Shown here: piece after piece, positions 34,929 through 50,470 of the stretch | How positions within the stretch are numbered: the first letter of the stretch is position 1 | How the letters are laid out: each line of letters starts with the position of its first letter | Assembly (NCBI GenBank): GCA_017621525.1 | Contig: JAGASX010000011.1 | Coordinates: 47,865 to 111,864 of the forward strand | Direction of reading: 5' to 3' | Length of the DNA: 64,000 bases | Source: Clostridia bacterium | GTDB lineage: Bacteria > Bacillota > Clostridia > Christensenellales > UBA1242 | Notes under the pieces: generated by a model | Seen by the model: the letters and a program-made list of their open reading frames with translations, nothing else | What the model was told of the DNA's origin: nothing | The model's database searches: none | Program-made: the position numbers and the translations under genes

Positions 34929-34990
34929 TGTTTCCTCCCTAAAATTTTTCTTTGGCTTATATTCTTATAAATCAAATATGTGTAATATTG

Positions 34991-35059
34991 GAACAAAATG
35001 TTCATAATTATTATATGGAACAAAATGTTCCGTGTCAAGAAAATTTGAACACTTTGTTC
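34991..35059. promoter_or_regulatory. Three GAACA-N3-TGTTC operator palindromes in the divergent XRE/peptide control region
   Basis: GAACAAAATGTTC at 34991-35003 and 35018-35030. GAACACTTTGTTC at 35047-35059. Box 2 lies exactly in the spacer of the minus-strand promoter and box 1 just downstream of its -10. Confidence 0.6.
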
Positions 35060-35071
35060 TAAAATATTTTT

Positions 35072-35278
35072 ATGAATAAGTTTAGCGAACGCATTAAAGA
35101 ATTAAGGGTTGAAAAAGGTTATTCTCGCAAGCATCTTGCAGGGCTTTTGTTTATCAGCGAAAGGCTTGTTTCTTATTGGGAAAATGGGCAACGAGAATGT
35201 GATTTTGATATGCTTATAAAAATTTCAAATGTTTTTAATGTAAGCATAGATTTTTTATTGGGTAAAAGCAATTTTTAA
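35072..35278 (+). CDS. XRE-family helix-turn-helix transcriptional regulator (68 aa, HTH only)
   Basis: Classic Cro/CI HTH (IKELRVEKGYSRKHLAGLLFISERLVSYWENGQ). No SD. TAAAAT (35060-35065) ends 6 nt before the ATG, which suggests a leaderless mRNA. Confidence 0.85.
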   Translation: MNKFSERIKELRVEKGYSRKHLAGLLFISERLVSYWENGQRECDFDMLIKISNVFNVSIDFLLGKSNF

Positions 35279-35303
35279 AAAGCAGGCATAAAGCCTGCTT
35301 TTA
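35279..35303. terminator. Bidirectional terminator between the XRE gene and sigF
   Basis: AGCAGGC-ATAAA-GCCTGCT stem flanked by A and T runs. Confidence 0.6.
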
Positions 35304-36026
35304 TGATGAAAGTTTGTTTCTTAAATTTTCTAAAATCTTGTTTTCAAGGCGGGAAACCTGCACCTGCGAAATGTTAAGTTCTTTGGCTATTTCGCTTTGG
35401 GTTTTATCAAAATAATAGCGTAGCATGATGATTTTTTTATCCCTTTCGTCAAGGTTTTTTATTAATTGAGAAAGGGCGAGTTTTTCAAGCATTTTACCGC
35501 CTAAATCTTCTTCGCTTTCTATTCTATCAACAAGGCATAGCGAATCTGCGCCGTCTTCAATTGGTGTATATATTGAAATTGGCATTTTTGCCGAGTCCAT
35601 AGCAAGCACAATTTCTTGTTCTTCCAACTGAAAATGTTGGGCAATTTCTTCAATTGTTGGGCTTTTTTGATTTGTTTTAACAAACGCCTCTATAAACTTG
35701 TTAATCTGCAAATTTAGCGTTTTTAGGGCTCGGGAAACTTTTATAGAACCGTCATCCCGCATAAATCTTTTTACTTCGCCAATAACCATAGGCACCACAT
35801 AGGTGGAAAATTTTACTTCAAAAGAGGGGTCAAAATTTTTTATCGCCTTCAAAAAGCCCATACAGCCTATTTGGTAAAGGTCATCATACTCAACACCCTT
35901 GTTTTTAAAGCGTTTTATAACGCTTTTTATTAGTGGCGAATTTTCTTCAAGTAGCACCGATTTTGCACTTTGATTACCCTGTTGAGCCAGATTTACAAGT
36001 TGCAAAATTTGGGCAGAATCAATCAT
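35301..36026 (-). CDS. sigF: Sporulation sigma factor F
   Basis: Sigma-70 regions 2 to 4. Third gene of the spoIIAA-spoIIAB-sigF operon. Confidence 0.93.
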   Translation of the reverse strand: MIDSAQILQLVNLAQQGNQSAKSVLLEENSPLIKSVIKRFKNKGVEYDDLYQIGCMGFLKAIKNFDPSFEVKFSTYVVPMVIGEVKRFMRDDGSIKVSRALKTLNLQINKFIEAFVKTNQKSPTIEEIAQHFQLEEQEIVLAMDSAKMPISIYTPIEDGADSLCLVDRIESEEDLGGKMLEKLALSQLIKNLDERDKKIIMLRYYFDKTQSEIAKELNISQVQVSRLENKILENLRNKLSS

Positions 36027-36468
36027 TCCCCACCTGCTTTAATGCCCTTGCAATCTGCTTGTACATAACCACTTTAAGCCCCATGCCGTCATTTGGCATA
36101 ACTTCCACCTTATCCATAAAACTTTCCATAACTGCAAAGCCCATTCCACTTCTCTCTTCGCTTGGTTTTGTGGTGTAAAAAGGCTCCATTGCTTTGGAAA
36201 TATCTTTTATGCCAATTCCGCTGTCCTTAACGATTATTTTTATATTATCTCCCTCTAATTCGCAACGCAAATTTACCATGCCATTACCCTTTGGGTATGC
36301 GTGCACCACGCAATTTGTAACCGCCTCTGATACCGCAGTTTTTATATCGTTAAGTTCATCTACCGACGGGTTGAGTTGTAGGCAAAAGCCGGCAACGCAA
36401 ACGCGAGCAAAACCCTCGTTGATTGACAACGCTTTAAAGTTTACTTCCATAAAATTCGATTTATTCAT
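36019..36468 (-). CDS. spoIIAB: Anti-sigma F factor / serine kinase SpoIIAB
   Basis: HATPase_c motifs (AVSEAVTNCVVHAY, DSGIGI, GMGF). Operon context. Confidence 0.93.
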   Translation of the reverse strand: MNKSNFMEVNFKALSINEGFARVCVAGFCLQLNPSVDELNDIKTAVSEAVTNCVVHAYPKGNGMVNLRCELEGDNIKIIVKDSGIGIKDISKAMEPFYTTKPSEERSGMGFAVMESFMDKVEVMPNDGMGLKVVMYKQIARALKQVGND

Positions 36469-36478
36469 AACTGCTCCT

Positions 36479-36787
36479 TTAAACTATTTTGGGCATTATA
36501 TTGTACAGCCCAGTCATTTTAAAAATCCTTTCCGCCTGCTTTGATGGATTGCTTATGAAAATTGGTATATTTTTTGTGTGCATCTTTTTATATCTGCCTA
36601 TTAAAACACCTATCCCCGTGCTGTCCATAAATTCAAGTTCTGAAAGGTCTATGATAATCTGTGAAAAACTTCCGCCCGCAAATATATCGTCAAGGGTTAT
36701 ACGAGTGTGTTCGGCCGAATATTCGTCAAGTTCTCCACACAAAAGGACATAAAGTGTATTGTTGTAAATTTTACTTTTAATCTGCAT
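36479..36787 (-). CDS. spoIIAA: Anti-sigma F factor antagonist SpoIIAA (STAS domain)
   Basis: STAS fold with the phosphorylatable Ser motif (FMDSTGIGVLIG). Operon context. Confidence 0.9.
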   Translation of the reverse strand: MQIKSKIYNNTLYVLLCGELDEYSAEHTRITLDDIFAGGSFSQIIIDLSELEFMDSTGIGVLIGRYKKMHTKNIPIFISNPSKQAERIFKMTGLYNIMPKIV

Positions 36788-36865
36788 GGCTTTCGCCTCC
36801 TGTTAAGCATAATTTAGCACAAGCGCAGATAAGAAAAATAAGCCCTTTTGCCGAAAAATAGACAA

Positions 36866-36897
36866 TAAAAAAGAAAGGGCTCGTTTGTCCTTTCTTT
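36866..36897 (-). terminator. Intrinsic terminator after the SDR gene
   Basis: Minus-sense AAAGAAAGG..CCTTTCTTT stem followed by T-run. Confidence 0.6.
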
Positions 36898-36905
36898 AAA
36901 CTTAT

Positions 36906-37640
36906 TTAAAATTTTAAAACCCCACCCGAAACGGTAAGCACCTCGCCTGTTATAAAACTTGCATCATTGCTTGCAAGAAAATACACGGCGTTTGCGACAT
37001 CTTGTGGAGTGCCCAATCTTTTAAGAGGCGTGCGGTTTATGCAAGCGTTTTTTTCCTCATCAGTATACGACGAGGTCATTGGGGTTTGAATAAATCCGGG
37101 TGCAACCGCATTGACGCGCACCTCCAATGAGGCACATTCATCAGCCAATGCCTTTGTAAGGGCAATTATACCGCCTTTTGAGGCTGAATATGCACTTTCG
37201 CAGGCTCCGCCATAAATGCCATATATGGAGGAAATATTGACAATGGAGCAGTTTGCCATTCTATGGTCTATGAAGTGCTTTTGCGCCTGCCCATTGCAGT
37301 ATAAGGCGCCTTTTAAGTTTACATCAATAATTTTGCTTATATCCTCAGCCGTCTGGTCGCAAAGCAATTGTTCGCCAAGTGAAATTCCACTGTTAAACAC
37401 AACCGTTTGTATGCAATCACTTGAAAAAGCCTCTTTAAAGCCCTCTTCAACCGATTGAAAGTTGGACACGTCCATTTTTATAGTTTTTAATTTAACTTTA
37501 TTAGTTTCGCAAATAGTTTCTATTGCTTTTGTATCGCTTTTATTATAGGTTGCAACAATATCATAACCATTTTGTGCAAATTTTTCTACCAATGCAAGGC
37601 CTATTCCGCCTGTTGCGCCAATTATAAAGGCTTTACTCAT
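36906..37640 (-). CDS. Short-chain dehydrogenase/reductase (FabG-like)
   Basis: GATGGIG cofactor motif and the S..YxxxK catalytic pattern (YSASKGG). Start at ATG 37640 after GAGGGGG. Confidence 0.85.
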   Translation of the reverse strand: MSKAFIIGATGGIGLALVEKFAQNGYDIVATYNKSDTKAIETICETNKVKLKTIKMDVSNFQSVEEGFKEAFSSDCIQTVVFNSGISLGEQLLCDQTAEDISKIIDVNLKGALYCNGQAQKHFIDHRMANCSIVNISSIYGIYGGACESAYSASKGGIIALTKALADECASLEVRVNAVAPGFIQTPMTSSYTDEEKNACINRTPLKRLGTPQDVANAVYFLASNDASFITGEVLTVSGGVLKF

Positions 37641-38367
37641 TTTCTTCCCCCTCACTTTCTTTTAAAAATTCTTCCAACTTATTTTGAACATCCGCAAATG
37701 GTATATGGGTGAATGAATATTTGCCTTGTTCGTCTACGATTATTTGGTCGCCTACCATTAAAACCTCAACGCCCAAAGCCTTTGCCATAGCACCATCTTC
37801 AATTTCATTATTTCCTATATAAATCACCTCTTCAGGCAAAAGGTTGAATTTATTTAAAATATCTTGCAAAAAGTTGGGGTTAGGCTTGCAACAAGTTGAA
37901 TTAGAATAGTCGCTGATATAGTCAAAATTTTCTAAGTTTACGCCTGCAAATTTGGCTCGCCACTGCATAGCCTCTTTTGGAAATACCGGGTTTGACGCCA
38001 AAATGACATATTTAAAGTTTTGTCTGCAAAAATCAACAATGCCTTTTGACATTGGATTAAATCCGCAAGCAATTTTCGTCTGTGCAAACTCGTTTAAATA
38101 AAATTCATCAAAAATTGCCTTATCTTTCAATTTATCTTCACCAAAGGTTTGAGCAAAATACTTCCAAAACACCTCTTCATTTGTGGCATCACCATTGTTG
38201 TTTCTCATAAGAACAGTGCCTTTCATTATGGTGTTTATAAATTGTTGTTTGTCATACCCAAAAGGCATAGCCTTTTTGCATAACAGCCCAAAATAAGCCT
38301 TTACAAATTCATCTTCATTCATAGGCAAAAGAGTACCGTCAAGGTCAAAAATAACTGCTTTTTTCAT
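37633..38367 (-). CDS. HAD-family hydrolase
   Basis: Motif I DLDGTL at the N-terminus and a late GDQ-type acidic motif. Start at ATG 38367 after AGGGG. Confidence 0.8.
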   Translation of the reverse strand: MKKAVIFDLDGTLLPMNEDEFVKAYFGLLCKKAMPFGYDKQQFINTIMKGTVLMRNNNGDATNEEVFWKYFAQTFGEDKLKDKAIFDEFYLNEFAQTKIACGFNPMSKGIVDFCRQNFKYVILASNPVFPKEAMQWRAKFAGVNLENFDYISDYSNSTCCKPNPNFLQDILNKFNLLPEEVIYIGNNEIEDGAMAKALGVEVLMVGDQIIVDEQGKYSFTHIPFADVQNKLEEFLKESEGEENE

Positions 38368-38380
38368 GATATCCCCTAAA

Positions 38381-38407
38381 AAAATAAAAAACCTGCACAA
38401 GGCAGGT
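38381..38407 (-). terminator. Intrinsic terminator ending the six-tRNA cluster
   Basis: Minus-sense ACCTGC-CTTGT-GCAGGT stem followed by a long T-run. Confidence 0.6.
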
Positions 38408-38411
38408 CTTT

Positions 38412-38496
38412 TGGTGGGCAGGGATGGATTCGAACCATCGAAGTCATTGACGACAGATTTACAGTCTGTTGCATTTGGCCGCTCTGCAACCTACCC
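38412..38496 (-). tRNA. tRNA-Tyr (GTA), type II, CCA encoded
   Basis: GGGTAGG acceptor, loop CTGTAAA, long variable arm, T arm GATGG-TTCGAAT-CCATC. Confidence 0.92.
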
Positions 38497-38530
38497 ATAA
38501 ATTTTAAGCACCTTTTTCAAGGTGCTTTTT

Positions 38531-38605
38531 TGGAGCTGGTGAACGGAATCGAACCATCAACCTGCTGATTACAAGTCAGCTGCTCTACCATTGAGCCACA
38601 CCAGC
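38531..38605 (-). tRNA. tRNA-Thr (TGT), CCA encoded
   Basis: GCTGGTG acceptor, anticodon arm GCTGA-CTTGTAA-TCAGC. Confidence 0.92.
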
Positions 38606-38639
38606 ATATTGTGAACTAAAACTTTGAATAGCCCACGTT

Positions 38640-38707
38640 TGGTGCCCTAAGGTGGGCTTAACCCTCTCTTTCAAGAGATTTAAGGTTGCTTCCACCAAGG
38701 CCACGTT
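38640..38707 (-). repeat. tRNA-Phe-linked 68-nt module ending in a duplicate tRNA-Phe 3' end (..CCACCTTAGGGCACCA)
   Basis: 23-nt perfect direct repeat 38633-38655 = 38701-38723 (period 68). Internal hairpin TCTC-TTGAAA-GAGA. Confidence 0.6.
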
Positions 38708-38783
38708 TGGTGCCCTAAGGTGGAATCGAACCACCGACACAAGGATTTTCTGTCCTTTGCTCTACCGACTGAGCTATCAGGGC
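38708..38783 (-). tRNA. tRNA-Phe (GAA) with A instead of U at position 33, CCA encoded
   Basis: GCCCTGA acceptor, D arm GCTC-AGTCGGTA-GAGC, anticodon arm AAGGA-CAGAAAA-TCCTT, T arm GGTGG-TTCGATT-CCACC. Confidence 0.85.
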
Positions 38784-38827
38784 GTACAAAATTTTTCAAT
38801 TTTGCTTTTTTGTTATCCCATTGGGAT

Positions 38828-38904
38828 TGGCGACTCGAATTGGGCTCGAACCCACGACCTCCAGCGTGACAGGCTGGCGTTCTAACCAACTGAACTACCG
38901 AGCC
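38828..38904 (-). tRNA. tRNA-Asp (GTC), CCA encoded
   Basis: Anticodon arm CCAGC-CTGTCAC-GCTGG. Discriminator G. Confidence 0.92.
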
Positions 38905-38948
38905 ACATAATTCTTATGTGATGATGAAATCTCTGTGTCAAAAGAGAT

Positions 38949-39025
38949 TTGGTGGGCCTTCAGGGACTCGAACCCCGGACCGACCGGTTATGAGCCGGTT
39001 GCTCTAACCAACTGCGCTAAAGGCC
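38949..39025 (-). tRNA. tRNA with CAT anticodon (elongator Met or lysidine-dependent Ile2; loop CTCATAA favours Ile2)
   Basis: GGGCCTT acceptor with a normal 1-72 pair, so not an initiator. Anticodon arm ACCGG-CTCATAA-CCGGT. Confidence 0.85.
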
Positions 39026-39054
39026 CATAAGTAAACCTGTTCTTGTTTTTTAGA

Positions 39055-39130
39055 GTGGTCGGGGTGGAGAGTCTCGAACTCCCGACCTCATGGTCCCAAA
39101 CCACGCGCTCTACCAACTGAGCCACACCCC
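39055..39130 (-). tRNA. tRNA-Pro (TGG), CCA encoded
   Basis: CGGGGTG acceptor, anticodon loop TTTGGGA. Confidence 0.92.
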
Positions 39131-39150
39131 GTTGAACAAGTTTACGATGA

Positions 39151-39179
39151 TATTTTAGTATATTCTTCAAACTATGTCA
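39151..39179 (-). promoter_or_regulatory. Sigma-A type promoter of the tRNA cluster
   Basis: Minus sense TTGACA (39174-39179), 17 nt, TAAAAT (39151-39156), 20 nt upstream of tRNA-Pro. Confidence 0.65.
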
Positions 39180-39290
39180 AGAAAAATTTAAAGATTTTTG
39201 AAAAAATTTGAAGTTTTTTGATGATTTGCAATCATCTTTGTTATTTTATTATTTTTTAATGGCTTTTGTCAACTGATTTTTAAAAGTTTT

Positions 39291-40025
39291 TTATAAATCT
39301 TCGTCATCACCGCCATAAAAATCAAACGCTTTCATGATTTCGCTTAAATCATCTTTTGGATTGATTGCCTCTTTTAGGTCAAAGCCAGAAGATTGTATTT
39401 TCATAGCCCGTGGCTGTTCTTCTGGTGGTTTTGTATCCAAAAACTTATCCACAAGGTTATCATAGTTGTCATTTTCATTAAGTTGCATTTGGGTAACAGG
39501 TTTTATAAATGGCGTTCTGTCTATGCGTTCTATTTTCACTTCGCGTGGGTTATCTTGCACTCTTCTCCCCTGCATTTTGCTTAACAAAAGCCTCATAGGG
39601 TCATTTTCTGTGCCTGTTTCTATATTTTGTTGCTGTTTTGATTCATTGCTGTCTATAATAACGCGAATTTCCGCCAAGAGTTTTTTATAACCACTGTTTA
39701 ACAGTAATCCCGAGTCGCGTTCATTTAATTTTTCAAGAAAATCTACAATTTGTTGATACACCATACGAAGTTGTTCTGCACGCAAAACCTCTATGTTTCT
39801 GTTTCCGTCTTCCTGATATTTCTTAAAAGATTCAAGCATTGTGGCAATATTTTTTTCTTTGGCGTCAATTTCTTGTGCACGTCTTTTCATTTCAAGAATT
39901 TTACGCTCGCCATCCAAAACTTTAAGACGCTCTTCCATCAATGTTTTTTCATAATCAGCCTTTAAGTTGGCAATATATGCATCCACTTCTTTTTTGTTAT
40001 AGCCATTGAAATCGGTTGAAAACAT
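39291..40025 (-). CDS. DivIVA-domain protein
   Basis: N-terminal DivIVA motif (FNGYNKKEVDAYI) followed by coiled coil. Confidence 0.8.
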   Translation of the reverse strand: MFSTDFNGYNKKEVDAYIANLKADYEKTLMEERLKVLDGERKILEMKRRAQEIDAKEKNIATMLESFKKYQEDGNRNIEVLRAEQLRMVYQQIVDFLEKLNERDSGLLLNSGYKKLLAEIRVIIDSNESKQQQNIETGTENDPMRLLLSKMQGRRVQDNPREVKIERIDRTPFIKPVTQMQLNENDNYDNLVDKFLDTKPPEEQPRAMKIQSSGFDLKEAINPKDDLSEIMKAFDFYGGDDEDL

Positions 40026-40040
40026 CTGTTACCTCTCCTA

Positions 40041-40550
40041 TTAAAATGTAAAAAATCTTATGACTAATAATAGCACACCCACGATAGCAAATGCAACAAA
40101 AATCCATGCCGATATAAATTTTAATAAAAACAAAACAAGCCCCAATGACACGAAAAATAGCGATATTGCAAGAAAAATTTGGAAGGGCTGTTTATAAACA
40201 ATCCCGGTAATCAGCGAAGAAAAAGCGAACGAAATGATTATAAAAGCAGGATATAAATAGTAAACCTGAAAATATTGAGAGAGAAAATAAGTTGCGCCAA
40301 CCATAAAAAGCGTCAATCCAAAATAGCAAGAAGAATCAAACTTAAAAAGCAGGCTTTTGAAAAAGAGATGTATACCGGTGGACAGGCAAAAAATGTAGAA
40401 AATATCGTTATATTTGCCATTCATTAACGCAAAAGCAGACAGCGTGGCAAAAATTATGGCGTTTATAACCAATGACAATATAAGCCAAATGCTTTTTTTG
40501 ATGCCTAAAACTCTTCCCCTCATGCTTTTATTATTCCAAAAAGCAGGCAA
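40041..40550 (-). CDS. Hypothetical polytopic membrane protein (start uncertain)
   Basis: ORF with five or more hydrophobic helices. TTG or internal ATG start, no clear RBS. Confidence 0.45.
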   Translation of the reverse strand: MPAFWNNKSMRGRVLGIKKSIWLILSLVINAIIFATLSAFALMNGKYNDIFYIFCLSTGIHLFFKSLLFKFDSSCYFGLTLFMVGATYFLSQYFQVYYLYPAFIIISFAFSSLITGIVYKQPFQIFLAISLFFVSLGLVLFLLKFISAWIFVAFAIVGVLLLVIRFFTF

Positions 40551-40570
40551 TTTATATATAAAAAAAGAAC

Positions 40571-41482
40571 TTATTGGTCTTTTTTGTCATTTTGTTCATC
40601 TTTTGGGATTTCTATTTTTATATCCGCCTTGCCGTTTTGCAGTTTTTGTTGATAGTAAGGTTTTAACTGTTGAAGTGATTTTGCCTTTCCTTTTTTATAA
40701 AGAATGTGGCTGGTTGCAATAAATGCAATACCAAACAAAATAAGCAGAATAGACAAAAATTGCGACACCCTTAAAGCACCAATATAAAGGCTATCAGTAC
40801 GCAAAGCCTCTATCCAAGACCTGCCAACTCCGTAAATTATAAAATATAGTGCCATGGTTGAACCTCGATAGCGCAGTTTTTCCTTTCTTAACAAAAACAT
40901 AAGAATGGCAAAAGTGGCAAGGTTCCACATGCTTTCATAAAAGAATGTGGCATAATGCCAGCCAGAGCCTGCACAAGTGCAACCCATTTGATTGCAATCA
41001 TCAATATAAACGCCAAAAGGGAAAAATCTTAAAGACTGGTTTTCTATATAATAGCCGTAAGCCTCTTGATTGAAAAAATTGCCCCATCTGCCAATCGCCT
41101 GCCCTAAAATAAGTGCAGGAACAACCACATCGGCGACATCAAGAAAGTTTTTCTTATGAATTAAGCAGTATAAGGCAACACCAATTGCGCCACCAATAAC
41201 TCCACCATAAATTGCCATGCCACCCTTCCAAATTTCAAAGACCTGCCAAAAAGAGGTGAATTTATCAAGGCTGAACAGAACGTAATATATTCTTGCGCCA
41301 ATTATAGCCAAAGGCAGGACATAGCAGGCAAGTAAAATTATATCTTCACCTTTAAGTCCTCTGTATTTTGCATTTTTTACTGCAACAAAAACGCCTAACG
41401 CCATACCAACGGCGATAATAAGCCCATAATAGGCAATATCTAACCCAAAAATGGTGAAATGCTTTGAGTAAAATCCAAACAT
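40571..41482 (-). CDS. lgt: Prolipoprotein diacylglyceryl transferase with a Lys/Gln-rich C-terminal tail
   Basis: Lgt motifs (YGLIIAVG, GARIYYV, GRWGNFFNQEAYG). Start at ATG 41482, directly behind a consensus promoter. Confidence 0.9.
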   Translation of the reverse strand: MFGFYSKHFTIFGLDIAYYGLIIAVGMALGVFVAVKNAKYRGLKGEDIILLACYVLPLAIIGARIYYVLFSLDKFTSFWQVFEIWKGGMAIYGGVIGGAIGVALYCLIHKKNFLDVADVVVPALILGQAIGRWGNFFNQEAYGYYIENQSLRFFPFGVYIDDCNQMGCTCAGSGWHYATFFYESMWNLATFAILMFLLRKEKLRYRGSTMALYFIIYGVGRSWIEALRTDSLYIGALRVSQFLSILLILFGIAFIATSHILYKKGKAKSLQQLKPYYQQKLQNGKADIKIEIPKDEQNDKKDQ

Positions 41483-41488
41483 ATTTAT

Positions 41489-41518
41489 ATTATAATGGCA
41501 AATAATTGTGTTTGTCAA
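41489..41518 (-). promoter_or_regulatory. Consensus promoter placed for a leaderless lgt mRNA
   Basis: Minus sense TTGACA (41513-41518), 18 nt, TATAAT (41489-41494), then 6 nt (ATAAAT) before the ATG. No SD. Confidence 0.55.
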
Positions 41519-41529
41519 ATTTTTAAAAT

Positions 41530-41561
41530 AAAAAAACCCCAACAGATTGAGGCTTTGGGGG
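41530..41561 (-). terminator. Intrinsic terminator after the Rho-like gene
   Basis: Minus-sense CCCCAA..TTGGGG stem followed by T7. Confidence 0.6.
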
Positions 41562-41562
41562 C

Positions 41563-42720
41563 TTAATTGAGTTTTTTGCTGATTTTTAAAATGTCAGTTG
41601 TCAAAAATATGTCGTTTTCATCAATTTTGTTGTAGCCCATTATAAGTGTGGTGCTGTATCCTTTTGAATACGCCTTGGCAGTTGTAAGCAAGTTTTGCAT
41701 AACCGCAATTGCATATTCACTGCGACCATTTTGGAATATTAGTGGTTGTTTTTCTGCATGAGTTTTTATTATAAATTCATCAACCTTTCTTAAAGCAGTT
41801 ATTATATCTGGTACAAAAACAATCACCTTTTTGCCAAGTTCTGTTTGATATTTTGCATGGTTTGCCACATCCACCACTTTATTTATACCTTCGCCGTCAT
41901 TATCGCCATAGTTGGAGATGAATGTATCTGGAATATCCAACGATTTAAACAAAATTTGGTTTTCATACGGAGTATCTATGCTTAACACTTTAAGTTGATA
42001 GTTGTTTTTATCGCAAAAATTTACAAGGTTTTTAAATTTATCATCTTCAAACAATTCTTCTTCAAAAGAATAAACATTTCGTCTACCCTCTTTTGCTGTG
42101 AAATTGCCAAACTTGATGTCGTTATAGCCGATTACTTCTTCGCCCATGTCGATTTCGGTGTCTATTGCATCTTCAACTTTTACGCCTTCAACTTCAAGCA
42201 CCGCGGTTGCATCGTAGTGATTTTTATTGGTATTCATAGATGCTGAAACTTTTACTTTTGCACCCAATTTTAAAAGTTCTGCGCCGTCAATATCTTCTGG
42301 AATGTATGCCGATGCCCAAGCATCTATATCAAAAATGCAAAATCTGCCGTCTTTTGCAATTCTTACATACCCCTCTAATATTGCAGTGTTGCCACAAAAT
42401 GAATTTAAAGAATCTTCTTCCTGCATAAATGACACAACGCCTGAAATTGTGGCTTCCTCTTGTTTTGGCGTGTTTTGAACAGATGAAACAATGGCGTCAA
42501 CTGATGAAAGTTTTTTGAAAGGGCGTCCGCGTTTATGTGCCTTGATTTTTATTTGTGTGCCATCTTTTAATATGTCAAAAATAAGAGAGATAAGTTCTTC
42601 CCTCTTCTTTGTTGTTGGTGAAGCTATGCCAAGTTCTCTTGCAAGAGCGCGAAGTTCAAACACACCCAAAGAGTGAACTAAAATTTCGCGTTGTTGCAAT
42701 TCATTCATTTCTTTTCCCAT
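41563..42720 (-). CDS. Rho-like protein (Rho_N plus CSD-like plus RecA-like core) lacking a Walker A P-loop
   Basis: N-terminal ELRALARELGI..KKREELISLI. Middle and C-terminal regions align by eye to Rho, but no GxxxxGK[ST]. Start at ATG 42720 after GGAG. Confidence 0.6.
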   Translation of the reverse strand: MGKEMNELQQREILVHSLGVFELRALARELGIASPTTKKREELISLIFDILKDGTQIKIKAHKRGRPFKKLSSVDAIVSSVQNTPKQEEATISGVVSFMQEEDSLNSFCGNTAILEGYVRIAKDGRFCIFDIDAWASAYIPEDIDGAELLKLGAKVKVSASMNTNKNHYDATAVLEVEGVKVEDAIDTEIDMGEEVIGYNDIKFGNFTAKEGRRNVYSFEEELFEDDKFKNLVNFCDKNNYQLKVLSIDTPYENQILFKSLDIPDTFISNYGDNDGEGINKVVDVANHAKYQTELGKKVIVFVPDIITALRKVDEFIIKTHAEKQPLIFQNGRSEYAIAVMQNLLTTAKAYSKGYSTTLIMGYNKIDENDIFLTTDILKISKKLN

Positions 42721-42778
42721 AAGTTTCTCCAAAGTTATTAAAATTTTAAGTTAGTATGGCAAATTTGTCAACTATTTT

Positions 42779-43729
42779 TCACCAAATTGGAATAAAATTC
42801 GTGATTATTCCCAAAATTACGGCGATAAAATACAAAATAATTGTTATAAACACATTTGTGCCCGTCTTTTTATAGTTGCAGGTAAAAAGAACAATTAAGC
42901 CAATGCCCGCGCCCGCGCTTAGTCCGGCAAGAAGTGCTGGAAAAAGGATAACACCCTCCATATACATTTCTACCAAAAAGACTGATGAGGCACAATTTGG
43001 AATTAACCCTATCAGGCAAGAAAGTAGGATTTGAACATAAACATTGTTTGTGAAAAGTTTTGCAAGAGGTTCAAGCCCGCCACAATATCCTCTTATTAAG
43101 TTTATGGCAAGGGTTGCAACAAAAACATAGGCGATTATGATTGCTGTATGTTTTAATGCATCTAAAAATATATTTGTTGCACAGCAAGAAGAGTGGCCAT
43201 GATGATGTTTTTCTTGATGTTCATGACTTTCGTCTGTTATAGGTTGTCCGTTATCGTCCACAATTTCTGTATGGGCGTGCTGGCAATGTTTATCATGGTA
43301 TTCATTAAGTGGTTGTTTTTTGCGTTTTACAAGTGTTATAATGCCGTCTATTGCATAGCCTACAATGATTGCGTAAACAATTTTAAAAGCCATAAGCAAA
43401 AGGAGTTTTGGTATAAATTCTGGTTTTGAAATCATAAGAGGCAGTGCCTCATCGCTGGTTGCAATAAACACGGCAAAAAGTGTGCCAATTGTAATCATCT
43501 TTTTTGAGAAAAGATTGCTCATCACAGAAGAAAACCCGCACTGTGGCACGCTACCCAAAAAAGCACCAATGACAGGCCCCGCCTTATTGGTGCGATGTAA
43601 AATTTTTGAATATTTTTCATTATCGTTGTGTGAGAAATAACTTACAAGTAGATACGTCAAATACAGAATTGGCAAAACAATTAAACTGTCTTTGACGGCG
43701 TCCCACAACGCGTCTAAAAAGATTTCCAT
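42779..43729 (-). CDS. Polytopic membrane protein, putative metal permease (ArsP_2/10TM-exporter-like) with a His/Cys-rich loop
   Basis: GSVPQCGFSS and LIPNCASS repeat motifs. Central loop HDKHCQHAHTE..HEHQEKHHHGHSSCC. Confidence 0.55.
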   Translation of the reverse strand: MEIFLDALWDAVKDSLIVLPILYLTYLLVSYFSHNDNEKYSKILHRTNKAGPVIGAFLGSVPQCGFSSVMSNLFSKKMITIGTLFAVFIATSDEALPLMISKPEFIPKLLLLMAFKIVYAIIVGYAIDGIITLVKRKKQPLNEYHDKHCQHAHTEIVDDNGQPITDESHEHQEKHHHGHSSCCATNIFLDALKHTAIIIAYVFVATLAINLIRGYCGGLEPLAKLFTNNVYVQILLSCLIGLIPNCASSVFLVEMYMEGVILFPALLAGLSAGAGIGLIVLFTCNYKKTGTNVFITIILYFIAVILGIITNFIPIW

Positions 43730-43739
43730 TTTTTACCTT

Positions 43740-44636
43740 TTATTCTTGGCTTTGATTTGTTGGCAAATCGTCTATTTTAAGTTGTTTTGTTTTTGGTTTT
43801 CTTGCAGGTTTTTTAATTTCTTCAACAGGTTTTTCCTCTTCTTTTTCTTCTGTTTGTTCCTGCGTTTCTGGTGCAAAAGTTTCTTCTTTTTCCTTGCGGT
43901 ATTCATTCATGCGTTTTGTGCTTTCTTGTGGTGAATATAAAATGATTGTTTGTTTTTCTTGCAAGCCAATTTCACCATTCATATTAGCAGAAATAATAGC
44001 CTTGCCTACCATTTCTTCAATACGGCCGTTATTAAACGTTGAAACCTCGCTGTTATCTGCAAAAAGTTTGATTGCACCATTATTCATAGTGCCAACTTTA
44101 CTATCGTTTAAAAGATAGTAAATTTCTCCATTAAGCATACTTACAAGGCGGGCGTCGTTGTAAACGCCTGTGATTTTGCCGGTTATCATAGTAACAACCC
44201 TTGCTTTACCGCGAACAAACATAATTTCTCCGTCTGTCATAGTTGCAAGTTCTGCCCTGTCGTCGACAAAGCGAATAAAACCGCCATTCATGGTGCCGAT
44301 TGTTGCCCTGTCTTTTACATATCCAATATGGCAGTTGTTGATTGTTGTGATTGATGCCCTGCCGGCAATGGTGTTGATGCGTCCGCTTTTGAAAAGACCA
44401 ATTTTGGCTTTACCGCAAAGTTGTTCAACTTCGCCATCTTCAAGCATTTGAACTTTTGCTTTGCCAGAAATTTCCTTAAATGAGCAGTTGAAACTTTCAA
44501 GCACAATTGCACTTCCTGTAAGTGTAACATTGTTGCACTTGTTTAAAATATGCACACCCGTTGAAAGAGTGAAATTGCCCTCTTCATCATGAATGATTGG
44601 GTCGATAACCTTTTCTTTTTTCTTAAAAAGACACAT
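43740..44636 (-). CDS. Bactofilin-like beta-helical repeat protein with an acidic/basic disordered tail
   Basis: Ten tandem 17-residue repeats ([GDN]xAx[VI]xTMxNGxIxxxx). Start at ATG 44636 after GGAGG. Glu/Lys/Pro-rich C-terminal tail. Confidence 0.5.
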   Translation of the reverse strand: MCLFKKKEKVIDPIIHDEEGNFTLSTGVHILNKCNNVTLTGSAIVLESFNCSFKEISGKAKVQMLEDGEVEQLCGKAKIGLFKSGRINTIAGRASITTINNCHIGYVKDRATIGTMNGGFIRFVDDRAELATMTDGEIMFVRGKARVVTMITGKITGVYNDARLVSMLNGEIYYLLNDSKVGTMNNGAIKLFADNSEVSTFNNGRIEEMVGKAIISANMNGEIGLQEKQTIILYSPQESTKRMNEYRKEKEETFAPETQEQTEEKEEEKPVEEIKKPARKPKTKQLKIDDLPTNQSQE

Positions 44637-44756
44637 AACAGCCTCCAATGCGATTATTTTAACATATAAATTATAGGTATGCAAACATTTTTTACAAAAT
44701 TTACAAATTTATTAAAAGTTATTCACAAATGTTGTATGATTTTATCAAATTTTTTG

Positions 44757-44786
44757 TTGACTTGCAAAGAGTGTTTTTCATATAAT
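44757..44786 (+). promoter_or_regulatory. Sigma-A type promoter of the ABC exporter operon
   Basis: TTGACT (44757-44762), 18 nt, TATAAT (44781-44786). Confidence 0.6.
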
Positions 44787-44814
44787 ACTATCAGTTTGTA
44801 AAAGGTGAATTAGT

Positions 44815-46566
44815 ATGTTTAAACTTTTTAAATATCTTAAATGGCAAGAATGGATTTTGCTTATTGTGGCGATTGGTTTTGTTGGATTACAAGTTTTTTG
44901 CAATGTTTCTTTGCCACAATGCACTTTGGAGATAAGCAATTATTTTCAAAGTGGTGATTTGTCAGGAAACTATAACGGGCTTATTTTAACCTGCCTTAAA
45001 ATGTTGGGCTATACTGCCGGCGTGATTTTATCTGCAATTTGTGCAAGTTTTATTGCGTCATATGTTGTAACCCACCTTTTGGCAAGGGTGCGTGGAAAAA
45101 TTTTTGCAAAAGTAAACAGTTTTTCAGCAAGAGAAATCAATAAATTTTCAATACCTTCGCTTATCACTCGTTCCACAAACGATATTTCCCAACTTCAACA
45201 GGTTTTAACCACCCTTATAACCCTTGGTTTTAATGCACCTCTTACCGCCACCTTTGCAATTATAAACATTGTAAAACTTTCCTCTGAAAATGGCGCGCAA
45301 ACCCTTTCTTGGGTGAATATTGTTTCTGTTTTGGCAATTTCAATTGTGGTGATTTTGATTATGATGTTGGCGGTGCCAAAGTTTAAAACTATTCAAAAAA
45401 CAACCGATGAACTTAACAAAGTAACTCGTGAAAACTTAACCGGCCTTAAAGTAGTAAGGGCAAATGGTGCCGAAAAATCGCAAGAGGCAAAGTTTGACAA
45501 GGTGAACAATCGTTTTGCCAAAATTGACCTTTTTATTGGCAAGGTTATGTCTATTATTGAGCCAAGTCTTACGCTTATTATGCAAGGCACATCTCTTGCA
45601 ATTGTTTGGATTGTTGGCTTATTGGCACAAACAAACCCCGCAACAATTGCACTTATGGGAAGTTTTACACAATATTCTACATTTATTATTATGAGTTTCA
45701 CCTCTCTTTCCGTGCTTTTTATGTTTGTACCAAGAGGCATTATCTCTGGCAGGCGTATCAATGAAATTTTGGACACCGAACTTTCTTTGGTTGACGGAAA
45801 GGGAGCAACCGCAACAAAGCAAGGCACTGTTGAATTTAAAAATGTATCTTTCCGCTATCCAGACGCAGATGAAAACGTGCTTGAAAACATTTCTTTTACT
45901 GTAAATCAAGGCGAAACTGTGGCGTTTATCGGCTCTACCGGAAGTGGCAAAAGTACCCTTATAAACCTTATACCTCGTTTCTATGATTGCACCGACGGCG
46001 AAATTTTAATTGGAGGCAATCCTATTAAGGAATACAAGCAAAGTCAGTTGCACGACATGATTGGTTATGTGCCACAAAAAGGGTTGTTATTCAGCGGAAC
46101 TATCAGCGAAAATGTGCGTTATGGCAAGGAAAACGCAAGTAAGGAAGAAATTGATAAAGCCATTGAAATTTCACAATCTTCTTTTGTTTATTCTTTCCCG
46201 GAGGGTTTGGATTACATGGTGGCACGTGGCGGAAAAAATCTTTCTGGCGGGCAAAAGCAAAGGCTTTCTATTGCGCGTGCAATTATTAAAAACCCCGACA
46301 TATTGATTTTTGACGATAGTTTTTCTGCGCTTGACTATAAAACCGATAAGGTTGTAAGAGAAAACCTTGATAAGGAATACTCGGGGACAACAAAAATTAT
46401 TGTTGCACAGCGTATTGGAACAATTATGAATTCAGACAAAATAATTGTGCTTGACGAAGGCAAAATGGTTGGCATAGGCACTCACAAAGAATTGATGGCA
46501 GATTGTGAGGTTTATCAGCAAATTGCACTTTCTCAACTTTCAAAGGAGGAACTTGAAAATGACTAA
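44815..46566 (+). CDS. ABC exporter, fused permease/ATPase (heterodimer subunit 1)
   Basis: Six-TM domain plus an NBD with GSTGSGKST, LSGGQKQR, ILIFDDSFSALD. Confidence 0.9.
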   Translation: MFKLFKYLKWQEWILLIVAIGFVGLQVFCNVSLPQCTLEISNYFQSGDLSGNYNGLILTCLKMLGYTAGVILSAICASFIASYVVTHLLARVRGKIFAKVNSFSAREINKFSIPSLITRSTNDISQLQQVLTTLITLGFNAPLTATFAIINIVKLSSENGAQTLSWVNIVSVLAISIVVILIMMLAVPKFKTIQKTTDELNKVTRENLTGLKVVRANGAEKSQEAKFDKVNNRFAKIDLFIGKVMSIIEPSLTLIMQGTSLAIVWIVGLLAQTNPATIALMGSFTQYSTFIIMSFTSLSVLFMFVPRGIISGRRINEILDTELSLVDGKGATATKQGTVEFKNVSFRYPDADENVLENISFTVNQGETVAFIGSTGSGKSTLINLIPRFYDCTDGEILIGGNPIKEYKQSQLHDMIGYVPQKGLLFSGTISENVRYGKENASKEEIDKAIEISQSSFVYSFPEGLDYMVARGGKNLSGGQKQRLSIARAIIKNPDILIFDDSFSALDYKTDKVVRENLDKEYSGTTKIIVAQRIGTIMNSDKIIVLDEGKMVGIGTHKELMADCEVYQQIALSQLSKEELEND

Positions 46567-48367
46567 AAAAGAAAAACAAAAAATTTCACTTCCTCCCCGT
46601 CCAAAGGTGAAGAACTTTAAGGGCACTTTAAAACTTTTATTTAGTGAACTTTCACAACACAAATTTGCCCTTGTATTTGCATTTATTTTTGCCATTTCAT
46701 CTGCCGTGCTTGTTATTGTTGGGCCAAGAATTTTAAATGACATGATGGAAGTTATTATTCCAACTGCGGGTGGCGGTTCTAAAATTGCAGAGATTACAAA
46801 ATATGGCATAATTATTTTGTCTATGTATGTTTTAGCATGGTTTTTGAATTATTTTCAAGGGTTTTTATTAAACAAAATTTCGGTAAGTATTTCCAAAAAT
46901 TTGCGTACAAAACTTTCAAAGAAAATCAATCGTTTGCCACTTAAATATTTTGACAATCACAGTTACGGCGACCTGCTTTCTCGCGTTACAAACGATGTTG
47001 ACAATGTTGGGTTTACTTTAAGTAGAACTCTTTCATCCCTTATAACATCTGCTGTTATGTTGATTGGTATGCCTATTGTTATGTTTACTATAAATTGGCA
47101 ACTGACATTGATTGCACTTCTTCAATTGCCTATTGCCCTTATAATTGTTTTCTTTGTGGTGAAAAACAATCAAAAATACTTTGTTGGGCAACAAAAAGAA
47201 CTTGGAAATGTGAATGGATATATTGAAGAGAACTTCTCTGCACACAATGTGGTTAAAGCATTTAATGGCGAGCAAAAAGCAGAAGAAGAGTTTGGGGATA
47301 TTAACAACAGGCTTCGCAGTACCTCCCGCAAAGCACAATTTTTCTCTGGGCTTATGCACCCTATTGTAAACTTTACAAGCAACCTTGTTTATGTGCTTAT
47401 TTGTATTGTTGGGGCGTCCCTTGCAATTAAATCAAACAGTCCTACATTTCTTGCCACAATCATCACCTTTATGACTTACACAAAACTTTTCAATCAGCCT
47501 ATTTCACAAATTGGAACTATATTTGGAAATCTTCAATCCACAGTCGCCTCTGCCGAACGCGTCTTTGAATTTATAAATGAGGGCGAAGAACTTGACGAAA
47601 GTTTTAAAAATGCTATAATAGAAAATGTCAAAGGAAAAGTTGAATTTAAAAACGTCAACTTTGGCTATCTGCCAGACAAACAAATTATTCACAATTTCAA
47701 CTTTACCGCCCTGCCCGGCGAAAAAATTGCAATCGTAGGGCAAACAGGTGCCGGCAAAACAACCATTGTGAATTTGCTTATGCGTTTTTATGAAGTGGAC
47801 GATGGCGAAATTCTTATTGACGGCGTATCTACAAAAGATTTAAACAGAACCTATGTGCGTTCCCTTTTCGGCATGGTTTTGCAAGACACTTGGCTTTTTG
47901 AAGGGACTGTTAAAGAAAATTTGCGTTTTGGCAATCCAAACGCCTCCGATGAAGAAATTGTATCTGCCTGCAAACTTGCAAATGTTGACCATTTCATTCG
48001 CACAGAGCCAAAGGGTTATGATATGATTTTGGGCGAAGAAAGCAACATTTCTGCAGGGCAAAAGCAACTTCTTACAATAGCAAGGGCTATGGTGCAAAAC
48101 GCACCTATGCTTATCTTGGACGAAGCGACAAGTTCTGTTGATACGCGTACAGAAATTTTAATTCAAACTGCAATGGACAGATTGACCGAAGGGCGAACAA
48201 GTTTTGTGATTGCGCATAGACTTTCAACCATTAAAAATGCAGATAAAATTATTGTTATGAAAGATGGCAACATTGTTGAAGTGGGCACACATCAGCAGTT
48301 GTTGGACGCAAATGGCGTATACACAGAGTTGTACAACAGCCAATTTGAAGATGGCGAGGACTTTTAG
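46559..48367 (+). CDS. ABC exporter, fused permease/ATPase (heterodimer subunit 2)
   Basis: Start at ATG 46559 (AAGGAGG RBS, overlaps the upstream stop). NBD motifs GQTGAGKTT, ISAGQKQL, ILDEATSSVD. Confidence 0.9.
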   Translation: MTKKEKQKISLPPRPKVKNFKGTLKLLFSELSQHKFALVFAFIFAISSAVLVIVGPRILNDMMEVIIPTAGGGSKIAEITKYGIIILSMYVLAWFLNYFQGFLLNKISVSISKNLRTKLSKKINRLPLKYFDNHSYGDLLSRVTNDVDNVGFTLSRTLSSLITSAVMLIGMPIVMFTINWQLTLIALLQLPIALIIVFFVVKNNQKYFVGQQKELGNVNGYIEENFSAHNVVKAFNGEQKAEEEFGDINNRLRSTSRKAQFFSGLMHPIVNFTSNLVYVLICIVGASLAIKSNSPTFLATIITFMTYTKLFNQPISQIGTIFGNLQSTVASAERVFEFINEGEELDESFKNAIIENVKGKVEFKNVNFGYLPDKQIIHNFNFTALPGEKIAIVGQTGAGKTTIVNLLMRFYEVDDGEILIDGVSTKDLNRTYVRSLFGMVLQDTWLFEGTVKENLRFGNPNASDEEIVSACKLANVDHFIRTEPKGYDMILGEESNISAGQKQLLTIARAMVQNAPMLILDEATSSVDTRTEILIQTAMDRLTEGRTSFVIAHRLSTIKNADKIIVMKDGNIVEVGTHQQLLDANGVYTELYNSQFEDGEDF

Positions 48368-48376
48368 GAGGAAAAT

Positions 48377-50470
48377 ATGAAGGTTTTGGAACTTATTGAT
48401 GTAAATAAAGAGTACAAACTTGCTGGGAAGGAAAAATTTAAGGCGTTAAGCGACGTTTCTGTTTCTTTTGAGCGTGGTGAACTTGTTTCTATTATTGGTG
48501 AAAGTGGAAGTGGAAAAAGTACGCTTATGAATTTGATAGGCGGACTTGACTCTGACTATACCGGAACAATCAATATTGACGAAATTGACCTTAAAACATT
48601 TAAAGATAAGCAACTTGATGACTATCGCAAAAAGAAAATTGGTTTTGTTTTTCAATCTTTCAATCTTATTCCTCACCTTTCTATACTTGAAAATGTTACC
48701 ATTCCCCTCACCCTTTCAAACGTTAAAGAAAGCGAAAAGGTGGAAAAGGCAACAAAGTTATTGACAAAATTGGGGCTTGAATCACAAATAAGGAAAAAGC
48801 CAACCCAACTTTCCGGCGGGCAAAAGCAACGTGTTGCGATTGCAAGGGCACTTATCAATGACCCAGACATTATTTTGGCAGATGAGCCAACCGGTGCACT
48901 TGACAGCACCACTACCGGGCAAATTCTTGAAATTTTAAAAGAAATTGCAGACGACGGAAAGTTGGTGATTATGGTAACACATTCCGAAAAAGTTGCAAAA
49001 ATTTCCTCACGAATTGTTGAAATTGCCGACGGAAAAATAATACGCGACGAGAAAAAAGCAGACTATATGGCAACGCCAAAAGAAGAGCGTATTATTGAAG
49101 AAAAAACCTCTGCTGAAACAAAAAAGGTTAAGAAAAAAGAAGGACACCTTTCACTTTGGTCGGCATTAAAGTTATCTTTCCATAACATGTGGGCAAGCAA
49201 AACCAAAAATATTTTAATGGCAATTGGTGTTTCAATTTCTCTTATGTCTATGATTTTAATGTTATCATTCGGCTCTGGGCTTACCGGCTATATTACTGCA
49301 ACTGCCGGCGAATATTCCAACCCTACTGTGGTTTCTATTTCCAAAAAAGCAAATGGAAACCCTCTTGATACTTCTATACTTGAGGCTCTGAAATTTACAG
49401 AGCACGAAGTACAAACATTAACAGATGAAATAAACGCCCTTCTTGAATCTAAAGAAAATTCTTTTAGAGTTATCACTGATGGAGAAAATAAAAATCTTGA
49501 ATATGGTTTTAGCACACCAACAATATCGGCGGGAACTGTTGTTTACAAACCAGAATCTACAGAAGAAGAGCCAAATCCTGAAGAAAAAACCGAACAAATT
49601 TTTTATACCTACACCACACCTCCATATTACAATGAAACACATCTTGTAACCGAAAGTGGTCATATAAGCGGGGAAAATGAAATCATGCTTTCAAAAGCGG
49701 CATTAAAATTTCTTGGTTTGGAAAATTCACAAATTGAAGAAGTTGTAGGAAAAGAAGTAACTTTAAATATCAACTTTGGCGATATTAAATTAAGCAAACA
49801 AGTTACAATTTCTGCAATTGTTGACATTTCTCTTTTTGAGTCTATGATGGTTATGTATATTGACTATAACTTCCTTAACGATTGCGTAAAAGAAGCACAA
49901 GTTGCCAATGGATATGAAGCCACAGGGCTTTCCCCTACACAATTGTACATTCAAACAGACAGCGAGCAGACCACCGACCTTATCAACAATTATATTGAAA
50001 AAAATAGAAAAGACCTTGCCGGCTCGGTTGAAGAGCAACTTGAAAAAATGTTTAGTGAAATGCTTAACACATTTTCAATCGCCCTTACAGTTATTGCGGG
50101 AATTTCACTTGCTGTTGCATTGATTATGATTTTGGTAGTTCTTTATATGAGCGTTTCCGAGCGTACGCGTGAAATTGGCGTTCTTAAAAGCATAGGCGCA
50201 CGCAAAAAAGATATTAAACTTATTTTCAGTATGGAAAGTTTTCTTGTAGGAATTTTAAGCGGGCTTGTTGGAATTGCCCTTACGCTTCTTACAGGTGGAA
50301 TATTATCTATTGTGTTTAATTCTCTTCTTGGATTTGCACCTATAAATATGTTGTGGTATTACTTTGCAGAAGCAATGCTTATAAGCGTTGTTATAAGTGT
50401 TGTTGCTGGACTTTACCCTTCTGCAAAAGCAGCAAAACTTGACCCTGTTGAATCTTTGCGTCATGAATAA
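48377..50470 (+). CDS. MacB-type ABC transporter (N-terminal ATPase fused to an FtsX-family permease)
   Basis: GESGSGKST, LSGGQKQR, ILADEPTGALD, then a large extracytoplasmic domain and C-terminal FtsX helices. Confidence 0.88.
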   Translation: MKVLELIDVNKEYKLAGKEKFKALSDVSVSFERGELVSIIGESGSGKSTLMNLIGGLDSDYTGTINIDEIDLKTFKDKQLDDYRKKKIGFVFQSFNLIPHLSILENVTIPLTLSNVKESEKVEKATKLLTKLGLESQIRKKPTQLSGGQKQRVAIARALINDPDIILADEPTGALDSTTTGQILEILKEIADDGKLVIMVTHSEKVAKISSRIVEIADGKIIRDEKKADYMATPKEERIIEEKTSAETKKVKKKEGHLSLWSALKLSFHNMWASKTKNILMAIGVSISLMSMILMLSFGSGLTGYITATAGEYSNPTVVSISKKANGNPLDTSILEALKFTEHEVQTLTDEINALLESKENSFRVITDGENKNLEYGFSTPTISAGTVVYKPESTEEEPNPEEKTEQIFYTYTTPPYYNETHLVTESGHISGENEIMLSKAALKFLGLENSQIEEVVGKEVTLNINFGDIKLSKQVTISAIVDISLFESMMVMYIDYNFLNDCVKEAQVANGYEATGLSPTQLYIQTDSEQTTDLINNYIEKNRKDLAGSVEEQLEKMFSEMLNTFSIALTVIAGISLAVALIMILVVLYMSVSERTREIGVLKSIGARKKDIKLIFSMESFLVGILSGLVGIALTLLTGGILSIVFNSLLGFAPINMLWYYFAEAMLISVVISVVAGLYPSAKAAKLDPVESLRHE

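Follow-up and report, generated by a model that had tools for sequence, protein, structure and literature searches.

Rho-derived proteins without the ATPase P-loop: a conserved family in uncultured gut Clostridia

In textbooks, Rho is a ring-shaped RNA translocase that is driven by ATP. In this article, we will focus on a gene whose product is very probably a descendant of this protein that has lost its motor, in other words a Rho-derived pseudo-ATPase. The gene occupies positions 41563..42720, on the minus strand, of a stretch of 64,000 nucleotides from a Clostridia bacterium (assembly GCA_017621525.1, contig JAGASX010000011.1), the whole of which we will call the window. According to the list of open reading frames (ORFs) and to the sequence, it encodes 385 amino acids plus a stop codon. 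A GGAG ribosome-binding site can be read in the sequence 6 nucleotides 5' of the ATG, and an upstream in-frame TTG offers an alternative start, from which the product would have 389 amino acids. The reading that we will defend as a whole is that of a Rho-derived, ATPase-dead and selectively maintained protein that would act as an ATP-independent binder or scaffold, and we give it a probability of about 60%.

The extent to which the action of Rho depends on its motor, as against allosteric or "stand-by" binding of RNA polymerase, is still debated according to a 2025 review (PMC12360218), in which inactive homologs and Rho paralogs are unmentioned. A category of 'Rho-like sequences' was described by Moreira et al. 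2024 (PMC11347177) for proteins with one Rho domain only, or with its N-terminal domain plus the RNA-binding one, and the main text of that paper leaves their description to its supplement. The names of the motor elements that we use below follow the same paper. Our literature searches found no description of the motor-less Rho family detailed here, which we consider an undescribed family of uncultured spore-forming gut Clostridia.

The relationship to Rho is poorly visible when the window protein is searched on its own. Pfam finds Rho_N below its gathering cutoff (E=4.9e-5, 23.7 bits for a cutoff of 24.9) and no ATP-synt_ab, NCBIfam gives no match, and phmmer against PDB returns nothing meaningful, so that single-sequence scans alone would wrongly suggest that only an N-terminal motif is common to this protein and Rho. 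Profiles reveal more. A homology search seeded with E. coli Rho retrieved only gammaproteobacterial sequences of at least 89% identity, and 30 diverse Rho proteins of the canonical kind were aligned instead. Compared with this alignment by hhalign, an alignment of 50 family members gives a probability of 98.7% and E=2.1e-16 over 321 columns (residues 16-362). Against E. coli Rho alone, the probability is 16%, because this template held one sequence, and the register is already the same. The profile of the 50 members, searched against PDB sequences, matches Rho best (E=0.011 for M. tuberculosis and 0.09 for E. coli), and the stretches matched in the N-terminus, the OB fold and the core are collinear.

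The predicted fold points in the same direction. The AlphaFold2 model derived from the family alignment has a mean predicted local distance difference test score (pLDDT) of 83, above 90 across most of residues 111-385, and a predicted template modelling score (pTM) of 0.70. When it was searched with Foldseek, 50 out of 50 top PDB matches were Rho (E 3.4e-15 to 1e-10), many of them aligned near full length, with a root-mean-square deviation of 4-5 Å over about 280-300 columns. A third line of evidence comes from a relative of 384 amino acids encoded at another locus, L080. This protein matches T. thermophilus Rho by phmmer (E=2.3e-15, residues 95-356) and the family profile by hhalign (probability 99.6%, E=1.8e-23), and it thus bridges the family and Rho through a transitive sequence link. 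Taken together, the profile, the model and the intermediate show that the gene product is a full-length evolutionary descendant of Rho, with three modules in the Rho order. A sequence-only reading of this DNA had proposed such a Rho-derived pseudo-ATPase from a recognizable N-terminal motif and from an alignment made by eye over the RecA-like core. The peptides that it quoted are all found in the protein, its register is the one that hhalign recovers, and its own alternative, namely that nothing beyond a Rho_N/SAP-like motif would be common to the two, fails in front of the profile-profile, Foldseek and L080 matches.

The first of the three modules is a Rho_N helix bundle (residues 14-53, 42562..42681, minus strand as for all the segments of this gene), which carries the invariant LGVFELR…SPTTKKR…L…I motif and is aligned to the N-terminus of Rho by hhalign. 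When family members are scanned singly against Pfam, Rho_N is matched by 49 of 50. It is followed by the basic HKRGRPFKKL segment (residues 62-71, 42508..42537), in which G65, R66, P67 and K69 are invariant. This segment was considered as a newly gained AT-hook, that is, a DNA-binding element, and this was rejected since the same motif is found in catalytically intact Clostridial Rho; the Pfam scan of the window protein returned no AT-hook match either, though the GRP core and its basic flanks are invariant. Within a linker of pLDDT below 50 lies an F-x-Q-E motif (residues 92-100, 42421..42447), with F98 present in 98% of members and Q100 invariant, and it may be a short docking motif.

The second module is the OB fold (residues 111-185, 42166..42390), a five-strand beta domain of pLDDT around 90 that is aligned with the OB domain of Rho and is the counterpart of its RNA-binding, cold-shock-like domain; in the single scans, Rho_RNA_bind (PF07497) is matched by 8 of the 50 members, with a best E of 3.3e-5. 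Three aromatic positions are conserved in it: 129 (F in 31/50), 139 (F or Y in 42/50) and 169 (Y or F in 47/50), the last two of which align with Y80 and Y110 of Rho. The positions aligned with R66 and D78 of Rho, which we take to be its cytosine-specific contacts (E. coli residue numbers, here and below, are those of established knowledge), vary across the family. As to charge, the first 75 residues average +4.7 across the family and are basic. The OB fold, the linker and the RecA-like part are slightly acidic, and the net charge of the window protein is -12. The earlier claim that RNA-binding modules are retained is thus borne out in part: the fold and the three aromatic positions of the cleft speak for it, whereas the cytosine-reading positions are not conserved and the OB fold is net acidic. 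RNA binding by these proteins is therefore plausible as judged from their residues.

The third module is a RecA-like core (residues 186-385, 41566..42165, pLDDT above 90), which is homologous to the ATPase domain of Rho and truncated at about Rho residue 345. At its Walker A P-loop site, in the hhalign register, it has a GRRN strand and an acidic loop, EEELFEDD (residues 212-227, 42040..42087); the codons of GRRN were read directly as GGT AGA CGA AAT. Across the 50-member alignment, the invariant blocks are the N-terminal motif given above, G65-R66-P67-x-K69, Q100, G153, G212-x-R214-N215, E253 and D305, and R213 is present in 94% of the members.

It is in this core that the motor of Rho has been lost. 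The sequence-only reading had noted that no GxxxxGK[ST] occurs in the protein, and a regular-expression search over the whole window protein indeed comes back empty for [AG]xxxxGK[ST], GK[ST] and GxxGxGK alike. In the hhalign pairing, GRRN stands for the GQRG of Rho, the strand RNVYSF for RGLIVA, and NVYSFEEELFED for the P-loop segment, so that the place of PPKAGKT is held by EEELFEDD (DLYE in the family consensus, with E225 in 86% of members). The AlphaFold model has a strand at 214-219, a loop and a helix at 228-239, which bracket the P-loop site as in Rho and give independent support to this register. Further on, QLKVLSIDTPYEN pairs with the LLIDERPEE strand, KKVIVFVPDI with the Walker B strand and STTLIMG with GGSLTII. 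We take E211 of Rho to be its catalytic Glu, R212 its Arg valve, D265 its Walker B Asp and R366 its Arg finger. The window protein has T-P (IDTPYEN), and the family consensus T-S (NTSFEN), at the sites of the catalytic Glu and of the Arg valve, the sole invariant Glu of this segment being the downstream E253, and the invariant D305 (VFVPDI) stands one position past the aligned D265. Neither the Q-loop nor the R-loop segment has a constant length or sequence, and the R-loop Lys is missing. Finally, every sub1 and sub2 member ends at about residue 341-345 of E. coli Rho, as had been seen by eye for the window protein, so that the Arg finger and the last ~75 residues of Rho are absent. With these elements missing, ATP hydrolysis and RNA translocation as in Rho would not be possible, and motor-driven termination is, on such an anatomy, excluded. 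A sequencing error that would mask a P-loop is also ruled out, the loss being common to 50 of 50 aligned homologs and to 80 species-level genomes.

The loss of the motor did not turn the gene into a relic. Measured against an 83%-identical ortholog (GCA_054276855.1), the ratio of nonsynonymous to synonymous substitution rates (dN/dS) comes to 0.118 for the whole protein, with 0.087 for the first 75 residues and 0.078 for the RecA-like part. Such values mean strong purifying selection, and the gene is not decaying. Homologs form 84 clusters at 90% identity and have 278 representatives at 50% identity; nearly all of them are 350-400 amino acids long, and the few that have a name in their source are called hypothetical. 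The identical protein was found on 8 independent metagenome contigs. Using one genome per GTDB species, 83 encoding stretches were found, the best 80 of which were analysed; these sit in 80 different assemblies, hence one copy per genome. The carriers are metagenome-assembled genomes of uncultured gut Clostridia from deer, rabbit, mouse and human sources. A phage origin was also considered and set aside, as a tblastn search of 50,697 phage records gave no match to the Rho-like protein.

The origin of the family can be traced to the Rho of the Clostridia themselves. A search seeded with one near-intact relative, P0161, retrieved many canonical Clostridial Rho proteins with intact P-loops (GQRAMIVSPPKAGKTTLL), and the N-terminal signature of the family is also present in intact Rho (SPTSKKK…KGRP in P0364, SPTTMKK…QGRP in P0393). 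As catalytically intact Clostridial Rho carries this signature, GRP included, it was inherited from the local Rho lineage and is not new. In a neighbour-joining (distance) tree built on the OB and RecA region common to all, every protein without a P-loop falls into one long-branched clade, sister to the canonical subgroup that bears the signature; the P0161 type branches first, and the subfamily of the window is among the most derived. The branches of this clade are 5-10 times longer than those among true Rho proteins, so the single clade may be in part a long-branch artefact. The N-terminal signature nevertheless gives the origin of the clade an independent support.

Several forms that resemble intermediates were observed among the relatives. 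P0161 has 464 amino acids and a 38% identity with E. coli Rho (E=6e-70); it keeps the C-terminal region and reads FTQDKFKK at the P-loop site. Together with P0341-P0347, including P0344 (L088:3851-5248), it makes up a group of proteins of 434-466 amino acids, about 38% identical to E. coli Rho, in which the C-terminal region is kept, the GK[ST] of the P-loop is gone and the Walker B Asp has become Asn. The gene of P0344 directly follows spoIIR. From their sequences, these look like recently inactivated Rho proteins. The products of L080:9965-11119 and of L079 are "missing-link" Rho relatives of 384 amino acids with a half-decayed P-loop (GDRGLIVGNKRSRLYS); the former, whose locus was fetched through the N-terminal motif, reads GDRGLIVGNKRSRLYS…LLALNETPERIDE…VILLITDLADVY. 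P0212 (460 amino acids) has the Walker A GEKGSGKS and an Asp-Asp Walker B, with a Lys for the catalytic Glu (DKRPED), and it may bind nucleotide without hydrolysing it. Of the 220 superfamily sequences that were retrieved, no other has a GK[ST] that stands at the P-loop site within a Walker A context. Since P0212 still has its Walker A, the decay is graded, from P0212 to the P0161 and L080 types and then to the family of the window.

The genetic context gives a first indication of what such a protein may do. The Rho-like gene is predicted to be a separate transcription unit. Upstream of it, a consensus scan for sigma-70 promoters finds a promoter-like site at 42743..42771, minus strand (TTGACA, 17 nucleotides, TAAAAT; 11/12), which is a pattern match only. 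Directly 3' of its stop codon, a pattern scan finds an intrinsic-terminator-like hairpin with a T run (41533..41556, minus strand), in agreement with the terminator of its own that had been attributed to the gene, and right after this hairpin comes the lgt promoter (41489..41518, minus strand; TTGACA, 18 nucleotides, TATAAT), which fits the sigma-70 consensus at 12/12. The neighbour that had been read as lgt, the prolipoprotein diacylglyceryl transferase gene (40571..41482, minus strand), matches Pfam LGT with E=2.4e-69.

A survey of the neighbourhood, which had been recommended by the sequence-only reading, shows that lgt, the gene of a membrane protein and that of a DivIVA-domain protein stay syntenic with the Rho-like gene across related loci. 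The order in these loci is that of a beta-repeat protein, an ArsP_2 membrane protein, the Rho-like gene, lgt, a small membrane protein and a DivIVA-domain protein, and among 80 loci the neighbours are present in 57, 67, 53, 41 and 57 cases respectively (the Rho-like gene aside). In most of the loci that carry it, lgt is directly downstream. In the window, it is followed by the small multi-pass membrane protein (40041..40523, minus strand), which keeps the same relative position in the other loci and has no Pfam or NCBIfam match, and by the DivIVA-domain protein of 244 amino acids (39291..40025, minus strand), which is matched by TIGR03544 at 22.6 bits, for a cutoff of 22, and by Pfam DivIVA with E=1.5e-4. 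On the upstream side lies the gene of the ArsP_2, or 'arsenic efflux', membrane protein (42779..43729, minus strand; NCBIfam NF037962 E=1.6e-76, Pfam ArsP_2).

Upstream of the latter, we also observed a beta-rich repeat protein of 298 amino acids (43740..44636, minus strand). In 56 of the 57 loci that carry it, its identity is 59-84%, which makes it far more conserved than the Rho-like protein. Its AlphaFold model (single sequence, pLDDT 69, 1 of 5 models confident) consists of stacked beta-hairpins of about 12 residues. Pfam, NCBIfam and the PDB sequences give no match for it and its best Foldseek match, at E=0.32, is not significant, so that an identity as bactofilin is unsupported.

The order of genes differs in other subfamilies. 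In a distant one (L061-L076, about 24% identity), the Rho-like gene is followed by the gene of a membrane protein of about 199 amino acids and by the DivIVA-domain gene, and the three coding regions overlap or abut (for instance in L065:9968-12460), a cluster that looks like an operon from its layout. The ORFs upstream of it, which were named by eye, resemble fba and a ribosome-hibernation-factor gene. The L080 gene lies immediately downstream of ORFs read, again by eye, as the chromosome segregation genes scpA-scpB, and the L078 gene is flanked by a large gene without annotation and by a large one that resembles an aminoacyl-tRNA synthetase gene.

As to the host, a locus that is 99.99% identical to 31563..52720 of the window (L082) carries sporulation genes, whose coordinates were converted to the window: spoIIAA-spoIIAB-sigF at about 35301..36787 and spoVAC/spoVAD/spoVAEB at about 31681..33657, both on the minus strand and downstream of the Rho-like gene. 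The host is thus an endospore-former. The window also contains a six-gene tRNA cluster directly after the DivIVA-domain gene (38415..39131, minus strand), a three-gene tRNA cluster (55286..55729, plus strand) and a single tRNA gene (4534..4612). Neither the window nor the related loci, which total 1.2 Mb, showed a canonical rho; less than one match is expected by chance in this sample, which is uninformative. A tblastn match of Rho residues 19-71 at 14309..14491 is weak, straddles obg and nth, and was discarded as spurious.

With these elements in hand, we propose that the Rho-like protein works without ATP, by binding nucleic acid, probably single-stranded RNA, and by scaffolding proteins. 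The nucleic acid would be held by the basic segment at the N-terminus and by the OB cleft with its aromatics, and the RecA-like body, which is constrained, would mediate self-association or bind partners. The linkage to DivIVA-domain and membrane-protein genes suggests that this activity may be tied to the envelope, to division or to sporulation. The mechanism itself, which is deduced from the anatomy of the protein, is put forward as tentative, at a little under even odds. Several points weigh against our proposal: both the OB domain and the protein body carry a net negative charge; the sites of R66 and D78 are not conserved, so that RNA binding is possibly weak, non-specific or lost; the deleted C-terminal segment forms part of the subunit interface of Rho, which makes ring formation uncertain; and the synteny varies by subfamily, as in L080 and L078, so that the link with DivIVA possibly reflects a lineage-specific gene order and not a function.

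The kept N-terminal and OB modules are those by which Rho captures RNA, and this leads to a rival explanation, in which the protein is a paralog that modulates a canonical Rho residing in the same cell. It would compete for rut-like RNA, NusG or RNA polymerase, or poison the rings by co-assembly, and would thus be an anti-termination or buffering factor, for example in sporulation. The fact that canonical Rho is common in Clostridia and has the same N-terminal signature is in line with this, as is the sporulation of the host. Against it stand the lack of any canonical rho in the loci covered, though that sample is too small to inform, and the RecA-like core, which is about 14-20% identical to Rho and has no C-terminal interface segment, so that mixed rings are unlikely. 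We regard this modulation as an unlikely explanation.

The protein could also be a degenerate ortholog of rho, in lineages that gave up Rho-dependent termination and kept a motor-independent role, such as that of an RNA or DNA tether recruited to the pole or the septum by the neighbouring DivIVA-domain protein. Such a history would fit the single copy per genome, with different subfamilies in different genomes, and the position of all the P-loop-less forms in one clade beside canonical Clostridial Rho, if this clade is not partly the long-branch artefact mentioned above. It would also fit the P0161-type near-intact Rho that adjoins spoIIR, the linkage of the DivIVA-domain gene in two deeply diverged subfamilies, and the figure of ~30% of Bacillota without functional Rho that is given in PMC11347177. 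The comparison of two canonical rho loci with the synteny of the window does not settle it, as one of them has only an ArsP_2 homolog about 6 kb off and the other nothing. We find this orthology, as an explanation, distinctly improbable.

A broader scenario of the same kind, which we hold to be doubtful, is that a radiation of spore-forming gut Clostridia turned its only rho into a motor-less protein and has no ATP-driven Rho left. If so, the role of the remnant would be to bind RNA polymerase or RNA without translocation, or to tether nucleic acid at a membrane site marked by DivIVA, in division or sporulation, and these bacteria would offer a natural experiment on the functions of Rho that are independent of its motor.

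A protein that would still be an NTPase, through a non-canonical nucleotide site, could be imagined from the invariant Asp at or next to Walker B (D305) and from the invariance of GRRN and E253, but the absence of the P-loop, of the catalytic Glu and of the Arg finger, together with the conserved acidic loop at the phosphate-binding position, makes this very improbable. As for a decaying pseudogene, an artefact of assembly or sequencing, or a protein that only has a SAP/HeH-like N-terminal motif in common with Rho, to which the sub-gathering Rho_N as sole Pfam match and the empty phmmer search against PDB could lend some color, it is dismissed by the dN/dS of 0.12, by full-length homologs in 80 species and 278 clusters, by the identical protein on independent contigs and by the full-length profile and fold matches to Rho.

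Our preferred reading, a selectively maintained, ATP-independent descendant of Rho, can finally be set against the known systems. Canonical Rho, as in the structures from E. coli, T. thermophilus and M. tuberculosis, has the same N-terminal helix bundle, OB fold and RecA-like core in the same order, and the GQRG-like, Walker-B-like Asp and GGSLT-like strands are recognizable in the family. The latter differs from it in having no Walker A, catalytic Glu, Arg valve, recognizable Q and R loops, Arg finger or last ~75 residues, and the sequence identity is of about 14-20%. The insertion-bearing, or 'type 2', Rho of Clostridia (P0364/P0375, 548 amino acids, and P0393, 561 amino acids) has SPT[ST]xKK and, about 30 residues later, [KRQ]GRP, as in the family, and is the sister group of the pseudo-Rho clade in the distance tree. 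Unlike the family, it keeps GQRAMIVSPPKAGKTTLL, LLIDERPEEV, the Arg finger and the C-terminus, it matches all three Pfam Rho domains, and its insertion is much longer. Judging from this signature and from the tree, the ancestor is, by our account, such a type 2 Rho. The P0161 and L080 types have in common with the family the N-terminal signature and the loss of GK[ST]; their gene contexts differ and they are nearer to Rho, as L080 still reads GDRGLIVGNKRSRLYS and LLALNETPERIDE.

With respect to the 'Rho-like sequences' of PMC11347177, a class that its main text defines solely by domains detected with hidden Markov models, the family would land there through Rho_N and, at times, Rho_RNA_bind. 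The main text of that paper, which this comparison covers, has nothing on a RecA core that is kept but dead as an ATPase, on the graded series or on the synteny. As the RecA-like part is invisible to Pfam, domain surveys would score the carriers as having a "Rho-like" fragment or as Rho-less. The novelty of the family thus appears real, well supported and of interest to Rho specialists, its function being something that we only infer. Together with P0212 and the P0161 and L080 types, it documents the stepwise decay of a hexameric motor to a pseudoenzyme. A family this large and constrained, yet free of catalytic elements, shows that the Rho scaffold can serve a purpose on which selection acts even when no ATP is hydrolysed, and it makes a naturally motor-less Rho available for tests of binding to RNA, RNA polymerase, NusG or DivIVA.

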